Counted from the first letter of the stretch, positions 26,492 through 58,418 are shown. The stretch is DNA of 64,000 nucleotides from Escherichia coli (GCF_024502345.1 NZ_JALDNN010000001.1), one strand, 5' to 3'. Numbers and translations are program-made. Notes: generated from the sequence alone by a model not told the origin.

Positions 26492-26738
26492 GATATGGGG
26501 TTTGGTCGTTGTTAATGAGCACGACAATCATGACCGCCAACGACTGGATTCTTCCTTGGTTTATACTGGTGCGCATAATGTATATTATGTTAAATCACCT
26601 ACAGTGACAAATAAGTTCATAAGCCTCTCCCACTAACTGATAAATCAATACGTTAGAATTTCGGATCGCCATCTCGTTTCTTGCATTAGGTACAGAGTAC
26701 ATTCTCTTCATGTCCATGGTAATTGTGAGGTAAATGTC

Positions 26739-28133
26739 GTGTATTCAGTAAACCAGTTGGTTATCTCGGGCTGCAAACGGCAATGGATCCTGATGGACAC
26801 GGAAACCTCTATGCCGTTGCTGTATCCCCTTAGGTACCATATTGACCATTTAGCTTTCCGCTCATTGTCCACGCAGTCAGCTTCACTGCAATCTGTGAAG
26901 TTTTTTTACGAATTCTGGAATCAAAAGTATGGTGTCTCGTTTTGCTACAGCTTCTATTCATCTGGCCACAATCCAGACATCGCCGTCAGCGAAATGCCCG
27001 CATTTTGGCTGTATCTGGAAAATGGCCACAACGTCCAGTCAAATGTGTTGTCTTTAACAAGAGCCACCAAAGCCAGTAGCTTAACTCACGCAGCCAGAGT
27101 TCGTGCCGTGATTCATTTTCTTTCTTTTTTGATTAACACTTACATATCACCCGCATACCGGGACGACACGCCCAAAGCATTAACCCTTTTGGCCTCGCGT
27201 CTACACACCCGTTTGCAGCTTTGTCGGGATAATTATCGAACGCTTACACCAAACAAATTTTCGCTACGTAGTCACAACAGCCAGGGGTTTCAGAGTCTGT
27301 CTGGTGCAATGGTGCTCAGCCTGTATGGGATAATAGCCCCCTCTTCTGCCCAAAAGCATAATCCACTAAACCCTTTCCCTTCCGGACATCTTCAGTTCCG
27401 CAATTTTTTAATTATTCGCCTGTTATTAAATTATGGTTTACGAATAGGTGAGCTATTGTTGTTAGAGTGCAGTTCAATCAAACCAAATTTAAGAGGTGAT
27501 AAATTCAGTTTGATTGTGACAACTGTCGATGGGGGGTACGAACCAAGAAAAAATGCGCCGTCTCTCAAAAATGCATGGGCTAACCGTGTATTAGAACTCG
27601 ACAAGCAAGATTATATTTATTTAAGTATTTATATAGAAAAAATCCGGCCCAAAACACATAAGCACGATTTCATCTTTATATCGAGTCAACAGTCAAGAAA
27701 ACCATTGTCCTATACATCAGTTCATTCTATTTTTTCGAAAGTCGATAAGGTCTTTACTGATCAACACCCAGAGTACAAATCGCCCTTGTACTCTGATTCG
27801 TTGCAACGATTGACACCACATACAACCCGACATACTTGGGCCTTTTTGACATTGCAAAGAATATGGCATTCAAAATATTTGAGAAATCAGCTAAACAAAA
27901 CACACTTTGTTGCTGGAGTCCCTTCCCTCACAGGAGTAATGGAAGAAGCAAAAGATGAGCTACGGCTGATTGGAGGATGGAGCCCGACTAGTCAAATGCC
28001 TGATCTATATGCAAAACGCTTCCTTTCTGAGCAGGCTAATACTGCCAATATCCAACGTATTATTCAAGATAATGCTGCGCTGCAGAATACGTTAAATACA
28101 ATAATGGATAAATATAACGATGAGTTCATTTGA
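26739..28133 (+). CDS. tyrosine-type site-specific recombinase with a long N-terminal extension
   Basis: 464-aa ORF; C-terminal catalytic motifs GLRIGELLLLE, HTTRHTWAF and GGWS...LYAKRF; AT-rich; true start uncertain. Confidence 0.65.
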   Translation: MYSVNQLVISGCKRQWILMDTETSMPLLYPLRYHIDHLAFRSLSTQSASLQSVKFFYEFWNQKYGVSFCYSFYSSGHNPDIAVSEMPAFWLYLENGHNVQSNVLSLTRATKASSLTHAARVRAVIHFLSFLINTYISPAYRDDTPKALTLLASRLHTRLQLCRDNYRTLTPNKFSLRSHNSQGFQSLSGAMVLSLYGIIAPSSAQKHNPLNPFPSGHLQFRNFLIIRLLLNYGLRIGELLLLECSSIKPNLRGDKFSLIVTTVDGGYEPRKNAPSLKNAWANRVLELDKQDYIYLSIYIEKIRPKTHKHDFIFISSQQSRKPLSYTSVHSIFSKVDKVFTDQHPEYKSPLYSDSLQRLTPHTTRHTWAFLTLQRIWHSKYLRNQLNKTHFVAGVPSLTGVMEEAKDELRLIGGWSPTSQMPDLYAKRFLSEQANTANIQRIIQDNAALQNTLNTIMDKYNDEFI

Positions 28134-55177: not shown

Positions 55178-57361
55178 CTAAGCGCGTTTGATTTCAACCA
55201 GGTTGGTATGTTGCGGGTTCCCTTTCGCCAGCGGCGACGGCAGGTGGCTGGTCAATGTGTTAATACATCCACCCACGTCCACACCGTTGCTGTCCAGTCG
55301 GGTCCACGCGCCTTGCGGCATTGCCACCACGCCCGGCAGGATGCGCTGTGTCACCTTGCAGGGGATCTCCACCACACCGCGATCGTTGAATACATGGACC
55401 ATATCGCCTGATTTCAACTGACGCACGCTGGCGTCTATCGGGTTGATCCAGACTTCATCCGGTACCGCTTCATGCAGCATCAGCACACTGGCATATGTTG
55501 AGTGCGTGTGACCTTTGGTGTGAAAACCGCTCATCTGTAGCGGATACTTTGCTGTCAGACTCTTGTTCAGATGGGACTCTGTCACTATACAAAATTCAGG
55601 AACAGCCGGAATGCGATCTCCTTCCGGTAGTGTCCAGGCTTTAGCCAGTTCCGCCAGAGTGTGCGAGTAAATCTCAATCTTCCCGGAAGGTGTCGTCAGT
55701 GGACTGGCAACCGGATCATGGCGGAAATCAGCAAGGATAATACTGTCCTCATCACGAGTACCTTGCTGATCGATAACCCCCATATTCATTGCAACTTCCC
55801 ATTCAGGCAGATATGATCGCTTCTCTTTAACTTGTCCGTAATGCTTCGCCATCCACTCTGCCTGAGTACGCCCCTCAGTAAAACGCTCTCTTACCCCAAG
55901 ATGCCCCGCAATATCTGCACAGATATCATAGGTACTGCGTACTTCCCACATCGGTGTGATCGTTTTTTGCATTGCAATCATGTAATGGTGAGAACCGGCT
56001 GCATAGGAACTGTCCACCAGATCCTCGGCTTCTAAGTAGCTAGTTTCTGGAAGAAGGATATCGGCAAAGCGGGCACTGGCAGTCATATGATTATCAATAA
56101 CCACGATAGTTTCGCACAGGCTGTCATCTTCAAGTATTTTGCGTGTACGATTGATATTTCCATGTTGATTCAGAAGTGCATTCCCGGCCTGGTTGAAGAA
56201 CAGTTTAATACCGGTTTTCAGTTTATCCGCGCCTTTAACCCCCATAGTGGTGGCTGTCATTTTTTCCGGACTTTGAATCGCATCTGTCCACAGATAGCAG
56301 GGGATTGACACCTTAACGGGATTTTCACCAATCGGCAGAGCAGGAACACCATAAGGTGTTCCGTATGTCCAGTTCCCATTGTTGGTTCCTGGCAATCCAA
56401 AATGACCCGTCAGGGCAGGAAGTATCTGAACCGCTCTGGAAGTCTGTTCACCATTTGCATGACGCTGTGGCCCCCATCCCTGGGCAATGAAACAGGCCCG
56501 AGCTTCGGCCATTTCACGTGCCAACTGGCGAATACGAATAGCCGGGATGCCACAGATATCTGCCGCCCATTCAGGTGTTTTTTCGACGCCGTCATCACCG
56601 TTACCCAGAACATAGTCTTTATAACTGGCATTTGGTTTCGCCGTTTCCGGAAGGGTGCTACGATCATAACCGACACAATAAGTATTGACTCGTTCTTCGT
56701 CGATCAGATTTTCTTTTATCAACGTGTGTGCAATAGCTGCTACCAGTGCAGCATCGGTTGTAGGGCGAATTGGTAACCATTCAGCATGTTCTGTAACAAC
56801 AGAGTCTGTATAGCGCGGATCGATGATAATCACCCGGGCGCCTGATATTTCCAGCGCACGGCGCAGTTCTTCAACTTGCCCACCACCGGACATCCGAGTC
56901 TCAGATAAATTCAGACCAAAAAAAACCACAAGATCAGAATGCGCAATCTGGCTAAAATGACTGGCAAACTGTACTCCTGTAGCACCATACGTGTAAGATG
57001 TGGCGGTAAAGTTTTGAGCGTTTGAGTAATTATTGTAATACTGCAGAAAACCGCCATTCAGGTTCAATAACCTTTTCCATGCGGGTGTTCCTTGGTTATG
57101 ATAATACGCGCCAGATTGATAATTAAAATAGATTGCTTCATTTCCATATTTTTCAGAAACGCGCTTTAATTCAGCGGCAATAAAGGCTGTGGCCTCATCC
57201 CATGAAATACGTTTAAATTTCCCTTCTCCGCGTTTACCAACACGTTTCATCGGATATTTAATCCGGTCAGGGCTGTAAACTCGCCAGCGGCTGGAACGAC
57301 CTCGCAGACAGGGACGGATTTGGTGTTCACCGAATACCGAATCATCCTTAGCATCTTCCGG
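55178..57361 (-). pseudogene. DMSO-reductase-family molybdopterin catalytic subunit, N-terminally truncated by IS903 copy 5
   Basis: Frame open from the IS boundary (PEDAKDDSVFGEHQIRPCLRGRSSRWRVYSPDRIKYPMKRVG...) aligning from about residue 85 of recalled DmsA; Tat signal and N-terminal Cys cluster missing. Confidence 0.8.
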
Positions 57362-58418
57362 GGCTTTGTTGAATAAATCGAACTTTTGCTGAGTTGAAGG
57401 ATCAGATCACGTATCTTCCCGACAACGCAGACCGTTCCGTGGCAAAGCAAAAGTTCAAAATCACCAACTGGCCCACCTACAATAAAGCCCTCATCAACCG
57501 TGGCTCCATAACTTTCTGGCTGGATGATGAAGCTATTCAGGCCTGGTATGAGTCAGCAACACCTTCTTCACGAGGCAGACCTCAGCGCTATTCTGACCTT
57601 GCCATCACGACTGTGCTGGTCATTAAACGCGTATTCAGGCTGACCCTGCGCGCTGCGCAGGGCTTTATTGATTCCATTTTTTCTCTGATGAACGTTCCGC
57701 TACGCTGCCCGGATTACAGCTGTGTCAGCAGGCGGGCAAAGTCGGTTAATGTCAGTTTCAAAACGCCCACCCGGGGTGAAATCGCACACCTGGTAATTGA
57801 TTCCACCGGGCTGAAGGTCTTCGGTGAAGGCGAGTGGAAAGTCAAAAAGCATGGCCAGGAACGCCGCCGTATCTGGCGTAAGCTGCATCTCGCCGTTGAC
57901 AGTAAAACACATGAAATCATCTGCGCTGACCTGTCGCTGAACAACGTTACGGACTCAGAGGCCTTCCCCGGGTTAATCCGGCAAACCCACCGGAAAATCA
58001 GGTCAGCCGCCGCCGATGGCGCTTACGATACCCGGCTATGTCACGATGAACTGCGGCGTAAGAAAATCAGCGCGCTTATCCCTCCCCGAAAAGGTGCGGG
58101 TTACTGGCCCGGTGAATATGCAGACCGTAACCGTGCAGTGGCTAATCAGCGAATGACCGGGAGTAATGCGCGGTGGAAATGGACAACAGATTACAACCGT
58201 CGCTCGATAGCGGAAACGGCGATGTACCGGGTAAAACAGCTGTTCGGGGGTTCACTGACACTGCGTGACTACGATGGTCAGGTTGCAGAGGCTATGGCCC
58301 TGGTACGAGCGCTGAACAAAATGACGAAAGCAGGTATGCCTGAAAGCGTGCGTATTGCCTGAAAACACAACCCGCTACGGGGGAGACTTACCCGAAATCT
58401 GATTTATTCAACAAAGCC
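57362..58418 (+). mobile_element. IS903-type insertion sequence, copy 5, 1057 bp, intact, no target duplication
   Basis: Flanks atcttccgg and ccggttgaa differ; transposase ORF 57394..58362. Confidence 0.9.
57394..58362 (+). CDS. IS903-type DDE transposase
   Basis: Identical 322-aa ORF. Confidence 0.9.
   Translation: MKDQITYLPDNADRSVAKQKFKITNWPTYNKALINRGSITFWLDDEAIQAWYESATPSSRGRPQRYSDLAITTVLVIKRVFRLTLRAAQGFIDSIFSLMNVPLRCPDYSCVSRRAKSVNVSFKTPTRGEIAHLVIDSTGLKVFGEGEWKVKKHGQERRRIWRKLHLAVDSKTHEIICADLSLNNVTDSEAFPGLIRQTHRKIRSAAADGAYDTRLCHDELRRKKISALIPPRKGAGYWPGEYADRNRAVANQRMTGSNARWKWTTDYNRRSIAETAMYRVKQLFGGSLTLRDYDGQVAEAMALVRALNKMTKAGMPESVRIA

Follow-up and report, generated by a model that had tools for sequence, protein, structure and literature searches.

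Extent and content of the foreign block

The 64-kb window, by which we mean the whole stretch of Escherichia coli DNA analysed here, contains a foreign block of 31.8 kb (26598–58418) between hipA and yddB (Table 1). Based on BLAST of the K-12 hipA–pqqL region (L002) against the window, K-12 homology covers 24276–26597 on the left (hipB, hipA and 106 bp past the hipA stop at 26491) and restarts on the right at 58419–64000 with yddB, pqqL and gadB. Position 58419 aligns with position 11155 of the K-12 locus, where yddB occupies 9248–11620. The original prediction had placed accessory DNA at 26492–58418; its end is exact, including the 5'-truncated yddB at which the backbone resumes (first 465 bp, or 155 codons, absent), whereas its start lies 106 bp too early. 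The K-12 sequence between the two breakpoints measures 13.6 kb and includes the 5' end of yddB, yddA, yneP, ydeM, ydeN, ydeO, safA, ydeP, ydeQRST and yneL. Blastn of this interval returned zero matches anywhere in the window, and tblastn with ten K-12 proteins (YddA to YdeT) found no match in the 64 kb. The genes from yneL to yddA are thus missing, as had been claimed, and are not relocated within the window; the gene order given for K-12 is correct at the K-12 locus.

The anticipated recombinase gene, IS elements, Tn3-family transposon and cargo operons were all found, and composition shifts from block to block (40.4–56.6% GC). The reading as IS-rich accessory DNA in place of backbone holds in substance, but the landmark is dif and not hipA, and the block is a stack of at least 12 identifiable mobile elements rather than a single acquisition. 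Neither 24-kb half of the region occurs in one piece in any of 5,426 complete E. coli genomes. Hochhauser, Millman and Sorek (2023, PMC10121019) describe the hipA–ydeT interval as integration hotspot #20 of E. coli, with 62 of 783 genomes (7.9%) occupied. The block lies in this same chromosomal interval, with the difference that the right flanking gene ydeT is deleted in the window. As an island mosaic the block is ordinary, and its hotspot is already published; the text and searchable supplementary files of PMC10121019 do not link the hotspot to dif.

Table 1 Features of the hipA–yddB block and neighbouring IS903B copies (window coordinates)
Feature	Position	Strand	Remarks
IS903B copy A	16836–17892	+	outside the reported span
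IS903B copy B	20247–21303	-	outside the reported span
Chromosomal dif	26568–26595	+	intact, exact 28 bp; XerC arm GGTGCGCATAA, centre TGTATA, XerD arm TTATGTTAAAT
First tyrosine recombinase, GinA-like	26793–28133	+	446 aa, intact; PF00589 recorded for identical protein
Second recombinase, GinB-like	28120–28693	+	5' part only; tblastn and frame translation
IS903B copy C	28694–29751	+	1058 bp; transposase frameshifted by 1-bp insertion
Plasmid-type block	29752–35810	.	plasmid matches, IS ends, family profile matches
IS110-family fragment	29752–30501		within plasmid-type block
RelE/ParE toxin and HTH antitoxin	31262–31865		within plasmid-type block
ISKpn26	32075–33270		within plasmid-type block
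Non-heme ferritin-like gene	33440–33940	-	within plasmid-type block
IS26	34215–35810		ends plasmid-type block; no target duplication
IS1	34304–35071		inside IS26; 8-bp duplication GCATTTCG
IS3-family element	35811–36916	+	left end missing, cut by IS26
IS110-family element	36948–38310	-	1363 bp; NF033542 IS110 transposase, 360 bits
Tn3-family transposon	38351–47790	.	6.7 kb minus two IS inserts
Left inverted repeat	38351–38382 and 39746–39751		38 bp, split by IS5708
IS5708	38383–39745	-	in left inverted repeat
Foreign tnpA 3' fragment	39747–40088	-	
MBL-fold hydrolase	40268–41044	-	
GlxA-type regulator	41115–43419	-	split by IS
IS3-family element in glxA	41897–43232		1336 bp
Ester cyclase	43439–43837	-	
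Resolvase (serine recombinase)	44036–44611	-	
tnpA	44771–47755	+	intact; NF033527, 1209.9 bits
Right inverted repeat	47753–47790		part of Tn3-family transposon
IS3-type transposase fragment	47877–48092		opens 47877–51318
Lrp/AsnC regulator	48104–48571	-	
Serine/threonine-type transporter	48720–50081	+	NCBIfam TIGR00814 / TIGR04350 set
PatB/MalY C-S lyase	50113–51318	+	NCBIfam TIGR00814 / TIGR04350 set
IS903B copy D	51508–52565	-	simple insertion; intact 9-bp duplication CCTCGTTTC
DMSO/selenate-reductase-family operon	52599–57250	-	NapF-like ferredoxin, DmsD chaperone, DmsC anchor, DmsB, truncated DmsA
IS903B copy E	57362–58418	+	no target duplication; flanks ATCTTCCGG and CCGGTTGAA
Truncated yddB	58419–60326	+	followed by K-12-type backbone (pqqL, gadB)

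A recombinase module remnant beside dif

Replicated E. coli chromosomes are untangled at dif, the site of chromosome dimer resolution. The window holds dif within the 106 bp after hipA as a sole match with 0 mismatches (no second dif-like site was found in the window at up to 3 mismatches), and foreign DNA begins 2 bp past its XerD arm. The site's sequence equals the E. coli dif given in PMC3025954, which has been confirmed by experiment.

Judging from its gene order, the first part of the block is what remains of a four-gene tyrosine-recombinase module of the GInt (genomic islands with three integrases) type. The GinA-like recombinase retains R217, H343, R346 and Y406, which are invariant in an alignment across five genera, and shares 88.8% identity with the integrase that WP5-S17-ESBL-11 carries at this site. 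The GinB-like gene (normal length 521 aa) has one internal stop, and its 3' part is cut off by IS903B; three drafts with an identical first gene (L007, L013, L019) have an intact 521-aa gene behind it. In drafts with the identical first recombinase, the module genes encode 446, 521, 788 and 147 aa in order, with PF00589 on record for both the 446-aa and the 521-aa protein. Two of these drafts have the module at the window's dif site, and their backbone there shares 99.9% identity with the window; intact copies of the window's exact module bear other cargo (a 2016-aa ATPase, a DEAD-box helicase). The same four genes occur in 8 of 19 species loci with full flanks, and all hits of a genome scan with GinA-like motifs were in Enterobacterales and Acinetobacter, apart from one contig labelled Chryseobacterium. 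The third, 788-aa-type protein has no Pfam match, no PDB sequence match and no profile-profile match to the GinA-like alignment; the top Foldseek matches of its AlphaFold model (pLDDT 65.8) are all Cre, XerH or Flp, albeit weak (E = 5e-3, low TM-scores).

GInts, the Tn6571 family (Bardaji et al. 2017, PMC5385486), resemble the present elements in that their cargo varies, their 3' end is short and AT-rich, their ends are imperfect 11-nt direct repeats and conjugation genes are absent. They also have a comparable module at the 5' end of the island, in which two tyrosine recombinases of the catalytic type are followed by a large third protein (here with tyrosine recombinases as its best, though weak, fold matches) and by a small fourth protein. 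GinC was described without the first arginine, whereas the third protein of the present relatives has an apparently complete R..H-x-x-R-H..Y set. SEs of Gammaproteobacteria and Tn554 of Firmicutes are likewise multi-recombinase integrative elements with an auxiliary small protein, but the large non-catalytic protein stands second in SEs (intA-tfp-intB-srap) rather than third, and Tn554 has no large protein. Because all that survives of the four-gene module in the window is its first gene and 190 codons of its second (one and a third genes, not a full ginABCD-type operon), and the right attachment site is gone, assignment to an element family rests on relatives, and the likeness to GInts is one of gene order and anatomy to which the window contributes a remnant. 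The imperfect 10–11 nt end repeats and AT-rich 3' end are absent from the window and present in WP5-S17-ESBL-11.

Junctions of related islands

Modules related to that of the island adjoin dif in 368 of the 5,426 complete E. coli genomes (6.8%, close to the ~7.5% of Escherichia replicons in which PMC10214605 reports GInts). In a species-level scan of Enterobacterales and Acinetobacter, a perfect XerD arm of a dif-type site was found ~195 bp upstream of the first recombinase gene in 25 of 29 loci (for two of the other four, the available upstream sequence is too short for a decision). Such modules were also found beside two dif-like sites with non-chromosomal central regions, which may be plasmid or element Xer sites. 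The junction lies 0–2 bp outside the XerD arm, in fixed register, in 30 aligned loci, and motifs at the element end are conserved across these junctions at +17 to +26 (TAACTTCATA or TAAGTTCATA) and at +46 to +52. Putative binding motifs of the elements (TTATGAACT, AAGTTCATA) are similar to the XerD arm, a resemblance suggesting that the elements may recognise the XerD half-site themselves or may work together with XerD bound at dif; XerD itself may play a part in integration.

WP5-S17-ESBL-11 contains a related island of ~29 kb at the same point, whose ends are imperfect direct repeats (left ATGTTAAATCA, right AAGTTAAATCA; the right end is AT-rich), and retains yneL through yddB. In the window, the backbone was therefore lost in a later deletion, whose joint is occupied by IS903B, and the replacement proposed by the original prediction is borne out with the amendment that insertion and backbone loss were separate events.

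The island might instead hijack the host XerCD at dif (IMEX), as CTX-phi, VGJ-phi, TLC-phi and the gonococcal genetic island do. The site is indeed dif, inovirus-type prophages, which are classic IMEXs, occupy it in two genomes (L010, L011), and the right end of the element carries an XerC-arm-like TTTGCGCACAA with a partial XerD arm. IMEXs are not known to carry an integrase, and they recombine inside the dif centre by means of XerCD. The present elements share with IMEXs the occupancy of dif and a working dif left on one side, but they differ in their outer junction and in having two tyrosine recombinases of their own (R-H-R-Y is intact in the first, the one checked). Moreover, an Xer site at the right junction of relatives would need 5 bp more, and only GTTAAAT of the host XerD arm is kept there, which argues for strand exchange outside the dif centre; right ends of three different elements read ATA(A)GTTAAATCA, not a full XerD arm (no second GTTAAATCA was found in the window, where the right end is deleted). 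Together with the single dif-like site of the window and the position of the 30 junctions, this makes XerCD hijacking very improbable. With recombinases of their own and right junctions in relatives that are not a full Xer site, the elements fall outside the IMEX definition.

We propose, tentatively, that the four-gene module could mark an undescribed dif-specific clade of GInt-like elements, inserted 0–2 bp outside the XerD arm in Enterobacterales, Aeromonas and Acinetobacter and building tandem arrays there. If so, the dimer-resolution site would serve as a general point of entry for genes of defence and accessory functions. No description of dif-specific targeting by such modules was found in the searchable literature, and this strict targeting is the interesting part of the locus.

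A composite cargo

Matches covering 80% or more of the plasmid-type block, at 98–99.8% identity, occur in at least 34 plasmids, which come from Klebsiella, E. coli and Citrobacter. The IS3-family element that follows it is 100% identical to L003 26570–27706, a complete IS3-family transposase per RefSeq. The adjacent IS110-family element sits in a solitary Tn21-type inverted repeat (halves 36917–36947 and 38311–38316) that is uninterrupted in L003, matching the fixed position of IS4321/IS5075-type elements in Tn21-type 38-bp inverted repeats. The Tn3-family transposon has ~38-bp terminal inverted repeats, a large DDE TnpA and a resolvase. It lacks a 5-bp target duplication in the window (AATTA vs AGGGA). 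At two other loci the unit has one: on a pAA plasmid (L015) it is flanked by ATATT, and in a chromosomal island (L016) by TCATT, by which it is judged to be mobile elsewhere.

The amino-acid-use trio block (40% GC) is 99.97% identical to VREC0864 and ~93% identical to Klebsiella plasmids. In the reductase operon, the TIGR02166 match of DmsA starts at model position 109 of 794 (TIGR02951 and NF008632 also match in NCBIfam); ~108 N-terminal residues are missing, including the Tat signal and the first Fe-S motif, a loss that makes the enzyme very probably dead. The equivalent in VREC0864 is a full 813-aa gene. Overall, window 38372–57361 matches VREC0864 at 99.9%; that genome lacks IS903B copy D and the IS in glxA, and shows a comparable accretion at the same locus with a larger backbone deletion. 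The recombinase module is 88% identical to that of WP5-S17-ESBL-11, yet the cargo from IS3 to Tn3 is 99.7–100% identical, so the present cargo may have been acquired by recombination between elements and not along with the island.

Given that 29752–35810 is typical plasmid DNA, that the Tn3-family unit, the lrp–patB trio and dms-like genes all occur on plasmids, and that related recombinase modules were found in 43 places on plasmids, the whole block might be a plasmid piece integrated via IS26 or IS903B. We consider this very improbable: the block contains no replication, partition or transfer gene, no plasmid covers at least 80% of 47791–57361, the segment 38372–57361 is chromosomal in VREC0864, and the left end is a precise site-specific junction common to hundreds of genomes.

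IS903B copies and rearrangement joints

Self-BLAST and inspection of ends identified five IS903B copies (A–E) within 42 kb, all with perfect terminal repeats; the element is typically 1057 bp long, has 18-bp inverted repeats and makes a 9-bp target duplication. Sequences are 100% identical among A, B and E and between C and D. At D the 9-bp duplication is intact (in VREC0864 the site is empty and shows as a 9-bp alignment overlap); at A/B it is reciprocally swapped, and at C (flanks ATGGGCTGT and CCTGCTGGA) and E it is absent. Junctions, element boundaries, target duplications (present or absent) and the conserved place beside dif are direct observations. No target duplication flanks IS903B C, IS26 or IS903B E, and these three insertion sequences mark rearrangement joints; D, IS1 and the A/B pair do have one. 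Copy C joins truncated ginB to the plasmid-type block, and copy E, the deletion scar, joins truncated dmsA to truncated yddB. A composite transposon from C to E was rejected, as the outer flanks ATGGGCTGT and CCGGTTGAA are not an identical 9-bp duplication. Adjacent deletions mediated by IS903 are known, and copies without duplications at joints, with one pair bracketing an inversion, are nothing unusual; this deletion behaviour and the insertion of IS110 elements in repeats, both assigned here from sequence, are textbook for these families.

Outside the block, copies A and B (16836–21303) flank 2354 bp of the autotransporter gene yneO in inverted orientation. Two close relatives (L006, L012) have neither these copies nor the inversion, which is part of the same IS903B activity as the block.

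Contigs misjoined via identical IS903B copies could also produce such a structure, since the three joints without duplications all lie at repeated IS, copies are identical within A/B/E and C/D, and the joints are not reproduced in any public assembly. This is highly improbable: 64 kb across five IS903B copies, IS26, IS1 and ISKpn26 implies long reads, the 9-bp flanks of the A/B inversion are perfectly reciprocal, as a real event would give, and the independent VREC0864 has a similar accretion with a bigger backbone deletion at the locus.

Proposed history of the locus

As a whole, the locus, which lies at the replication terminus, is likely best explained by at least four kinds of event: integration beside dif, accretion, IS903B spread and IS-mediated deletions. 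We infer the order of events, the deletion mechanism and the identity of the proteins catalysing integration as follows. A site-specific integrative element would have inserted beside the XerD-binding arm of dif, leaving dif intact. As the anatomy of relatives suggests, its own recombinases would exchange strands in a short core (GTTAAAT and ~2 bp) overlapping the outer half of the XerD arm, and not in the dif centre, where XerCD acts. The Tn3-family transposon may have been acquired by the island cargo or already been in it; IS110-family elements would then have homed into its 38-bp terminal repeats. An IS3-family element would have inserted in glxA, and a segment of plasmid origin, bounded by IS26, would have been added to the block. 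After IS903B spread to five copies, deletions could have arisen via recombination of directly repeated copies or intramolecular transposition. The one at copy C would have removed most of the recombinase module, and the one at copy E the right part of the island, the right attachment site and 13.6 kb of backbone up to yddB codon 156. No intermediate genome in this series was found among complete genomes and public assemblies. Excision of GInts as a circle depends on all four module genes. Because three module genes and the right end are lost, the island is predicted to be no longer able to excise as a unit. The strain is left without ydeO, safA, ydeP, the yde fimbrial genes, ydeMN and yddA, and within the window dmsA, glxA and ginB are broken.

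Extent of the foreign block and lost backbone

The K-12 MG1655 interval from dosC to lsrB was searched against the window by BLAST. Its gene order (pqqL, yddB, yddA, yneP, ydeM, ydeN, ydeO, safA, ydeP, ydeQRST, yneL, hipA, hipB, yneO) agrees with the order given in the original prediction, and the window carries the interval in reverse orientation. Colinear homology covers 24276-26597, comprising hipB, hipA, and 106 bp past the hipA stop (26491), and is found again only at 58419-64000, from 465 bp inside yddB through pqqL into gadB; therefore, the foreign block spans 26598-58418. 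The original prediction, which had placed it at 26492-58418, was exact for the end and 106 bp too early for the start, and had correctly read the resumption of the backbone in a 5'-truncated yddB. Between the breakpoints K-12 has 13.6 kb of DNA for which blastn found no match in the window; tblastn likewise found none for the ten K-12 proteins searched (YddA to YdeT), bearing out the claim that the genes from yddA to ydeT were replaced. Composition also shifts between blocks, as had been noted by eye (GC 40.4% to 56.6%). The observation is real, and its interpretation is supported.

Among the deleted genes are ydeO, safA, and ydeP, which we take from K-12 to be EvgA-dependent acid-resistance regulators and effector; the deletion also removed the yde fimbrial operon, ydeMN, and yddA. 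The block accounts for the missing EvgA-branch acid-resistance genes, one fimbrial operon, and part of the yddA-yddB-pqqL system. Neither half of the region is found at ≥80% coverage in any of the 5,426 complete E. coli genomes searched, and an exact-protein look-up of the truncated DmsA returned only contigs ending at an IS or with the gene split in two. The ordinary backbone at 1-14000 (uxaB, sad, lsr operon) reaches at most 98.9% identity to any of these complete genomes, whereas the backbone from 14796 onward is 99.9% identical to the draft GCA_024502245.1; the source lineage is thus sparsely sampled by finished genomes.

The left junction lies at dif

The sequence common to the window and K-12 ends ...GGTGCGCATAATGTATATTATGTTAAATCA. 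It includes the 28-mer GGTGCGCATAATGTATATTATGTTAAAT, which is dif, the site of chromosome dimer resolution in E. coli as confirmed by experiment (quoted in PMC3025954), and no second dif site within three mismatches was found in the window. The first foreign base lies two bases past the XerD-binding arm. Chromosome segregation requires dif, a single-copy site that hardly varies between genera, and these properties make it an ideal safe harbour. This location raises the question of how compatible 30-100 kb of foreign DNA against dif is with FtsK/KOPS-guided dimer resolution. Each IS903B copy carries one FtsK-orienting KOPS motif GGGNAGGG (17554, 20578, 29413, 51839, 58080); right of dif, four of five motifs are directed at dif, the odd one being in copy D, and these are too few to interpret.

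Features of the window (positions in nt)
Feature	Position	Remarks
IS903B copy A	16836-17892	
IS903B copy B	20247-21303	
dif	26568-26595	single occurrence
First tyrosine recombinase	26793-28133	446 aa
Second recombinase	28120-28693	first 190 codons; internal stop; cut off by IS903B
IS903B copy C	28694-29751	no target duplication
Plasmid-type segment	29752-35810	half IS110-family element, RelE/ParE-HTH pair, ISKpn26, ferritin-like gene, terminal IS26
IS3-family element	35811-36916	cut by IS26
IS110-family elements in inverted repeats	36948-38310; 38383-39745 (IS5708)	80% alike
Tn3-family transposon	38351-47790	left end is the second inverted repeat
IS3-family element in glxA, with flanks	41882-43247	
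Cargo segment	47791-57361	Lrp-type regulator, serine/threonine-family transporter, PatB/MalY C-S lyase, IS903B copy D, DMSO/selenate-reductase-family operon
IS903B copy D	51508-52565	
IS903B copy E	57362-58418	

A GInt-like recombinase module and its intact relatives

The block opens with the remnant of a four-gene module, intact copies of which have genes of 446, 521, 788, and 147 aa. The relative WP5-S17-ESBL-11 carries a related ~29-kb island at the identical point (88% DNA identity to the window in the module, 99.3% in the hipBA flank), which opens with genes of 446, 521, 788, and 144 aa, has an AT-rich end, and is flanked by imperfect direct repeats (left ATGTTAAATCA, right AAGTTAAATCA). 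After this island the backbone from yneL to yddB is undisturbed; insertion and loss of the backbone are therefore distinct events. The window's module variant was found at >95% identity in no complete genome, whereas GCA_900450495.1 carries it in an intact relative; a protein look-up placed the window's exact first recombinase in many draft assemblies. Two of these drafts share the dif junction and a backbone 99.9% identical to the window, without its IS903B copies. In others, the identical recombinase lies behind an Inovirus-type prophage itself integrated at dif, in tandem behind another such element, or next to a dif-like site whose central region differs.

At two related loci (L010 1514-9737, and L011), hipA is followed by the Inovirus-type prophage (with replication initiator, ssDNA-binding protein, coat proteins, Zot, and secretin) and, beyond it, by a second perfect dif copy abutting the module; with prophage and module both at dif, the Xer-dependent phage and the island thus share one site. 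Two further loci hold four-gene elements in tandem, where the right end ...CACAACATAAGTTAAATCA directly abuts the next left end and the upstream element has a type I restriction-modification system as cargo. An Rfam search of 16000-60000 gave no family match.

The module's gene order is that of GInts (genomic islands with three integrases), in which two catalytic tyrosine recombinases precede a large third protein and then a small fourth one (PMC5385486, PMC10214605). We call the module GInt-like by architecture. In the first protein, R217, H343, R346, and Y406 are invariant across five genera. The third protein has no Pfam match, no PDB sequence match, and no profile similarity to the first. 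The top fold matches of its moderate AlphaFold model (pLDDT 66) are weak and are all tyrosine recombinases (Cre, XerH, Flp). An alignment of the 788-aa third protein of intact relatives shows invariant R250, H506-x-x-R509-H510, and Y541, which look like a complete tyrosine-recombinase catalytic set; in this the protein would differ from published GinC and Tfp, described without such a complete set. Accessions of the present element were not found in the SE/GInt survey supplements.

Targeting of dif across the family

A 110-bp probe joining dif to the element's first 68 bp (≥80% coverage) matched 368 of the 5,426 complete E. coli genomes, near both the 7.9% occupancy of 'hotspot #20, hipA-ydeT' (Hochhauser et al., PMC10121019) and the 7.5% of Escherichia replicons with GInts (PMC10214605). 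Third-protein homologues in Pectobacterium, Aeromonas, and Acinetobacter belong to the same four-gene module, with a dif-type site directly ahead of the element. When a GinA-like alignment was used to scan one genome per species, 25 of the 29 loci showed, ~195 bp ahead of the first recombinase gene, a perfect XerD arm TTATGTTAAAT with a 6-bp spacer and an XerC-type arm before it; for two of the other four loci, the upstream sequence is too short to tell. Thirty junctions align without gaps and share element-end motifs at +17 to +26 and +46 to +52 past the XerD arm. These results point to dif specifically, and not 'the hipA region', as the target of this widespread multi-recombinase family. By assignment through its relatives, the island belongs to a family with strict insertion next to the XerD arm of dif, seen in at least four genera. 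Such targeting would account for the published E. coli defence-island hotspot and for recurrent large accretions, e.g., in VREC0864. Among species loci with full flanks, about one in three has only a decayed module beside dif, and a remnant like the one in the window is a common end state.

Three different elements have right ends that read ATA(A)GTTAAATCA and not the complete XerD arm, and the right junction falls 5 bp short of a Xer site; strand exchange is therefore placed in or just beyond GTTAAAT, outside the dif centre. This placement, together with the element's own predicted catalytic recombinases, argues against integration via Xer, the mechanism of IMEXs (integrative mobile elements exploiting Xer). 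Bound XerD may act as a helper. Dif-like sites with non-chromosomal centres are present at a junction on an E. coli contig (L007, L020, L024; GGTGCGCATAA-CAAAGA-TTATGTTAAAT) and on Acinetobacter contigs (L035-L037; ATTTCGTATAA-TAGAGA-TTATGTTAAAT), and the data suggest that plasmid or element Xer sites are used as targets too. We found no paper linking GInts with dif in the searchable literature, which is incomplete, and nothing relevant on elements adjacent to dif.

Mosaic contents of the block

The plasmid-type segment is found at 98-99.8% identity, with ≥80% of its length covered, on at least 34 plasmids from Klebsiella, E. coli, and Citrobacter. Its terminal IS26 is interrupted by IS1 (8-bp duplication), lacks a duplication of its own, and cuts the adjoining IS3-family element. 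Two Tn21-type 38-bp inverted repeats follow, both split at the same position (...TAC|GTTAAG), each by a 1363-bp IS110-family element, which fits sequence-guided targeting of transposon ends; both repeats are uninterrupted in WP5-S17-ESBL-11. VREC0864 has three such elements in a row, compared with the pair at 36917-39751 in the window.

The Tn3-family transposon comprises, in order, the 3' part of another tnpA, genes for an MBL-fold hydrolase, a split GlxA-type regulator, an ester cyclase, and a resolvase, then an intact TnpA (994 aa) and the right repeat. In the window its two flanks differ; elsewhere, on a pAA plasmid and in another chromosomal island, the same 6.7-kb unit is bounded by 5-bp target duplications, so it is a real transposon. 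The regulator is split by a 1336-bp IS3-family element bounded by a 15-bp direct duplication ACACCGATAAGTCAT, a 15-mer present once in the uninterrupted gene of VREC0864; IS3-family duplications are usually 3-5 bp, far below this length.

IS903B copy D is a clean insertion (duplication CCTCGTTTC). The match of the reductase catalytic subunit starts at model position 109 of 794, its 5' end being missing because it was replaced by copy E. The stretch 38372-57361 is 99.9% identical to the VREC0864 chromosome, which has a full dmsA but neither copy D nor the IS in glxA. The recombinase module and the present cargo may have arrived separately, and the block is ordinary as a mosaic island at a published hotspot.

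The first recombinase, toxin-antitoxin pair, ferritin-like gene, MBL-fold hydrolase, ester cyclase, Tn3-family resolvase and transposase, and lrp-transporter-patB trio look intact; the reductase operon, glxA, and ginB are broken. The island is predicted to be unable to excise.

IS903B and loss of the backbone

At copy E truncated dmsA meets truncated yddB, and at copy C truncated ginB meets the truncated IS110 element; neither copy has a 9-bp duplication. Outside the reported span, the inverted pair A and B (16836-21303) brackets an inverted 2354-bp piece of the yneO autotransporter gene, and their 9-bp flanks are reciprocally swapped (GCTGGCTTG, ACACCTAAG, and reverse complements); neither copy, nor the inversion, is present in near-identical draft genomes. 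Scars without duplication and swapped flanks are the standard signature of IS-mediated deletion and inversion. The backbone would have been lost by IS-mediated deletion, through recombination between copies or intramolecular transposition, a mechanism we infer from these scars. IS903B has been reshaping the terminus region in this lineage. A composite transposon from copy C to copy E was rejected, since they share no common 9-bp duplication, as was the idea that other strains with IS903B near yddB have the window's joint, since EC-14-2-9 has the IS in yddA and an intact backbone.

An independent parallel is found in VREC0864 (NZ_LR536431.1 2,640,000-2,728,000), where >85 kb accreted at the same locus and the backbone deletion extends into gadC, its joint occupied by ISKpn26. 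This accretion holds a heat-resistance locus (clpK, sHSP20-GI, yfdX1/2, hdeD-GI), a Tn7-like element, a Gabija-like nuclease-helicase pair, and a nucleotidyltransferase accompanied by a pore-forming effector.
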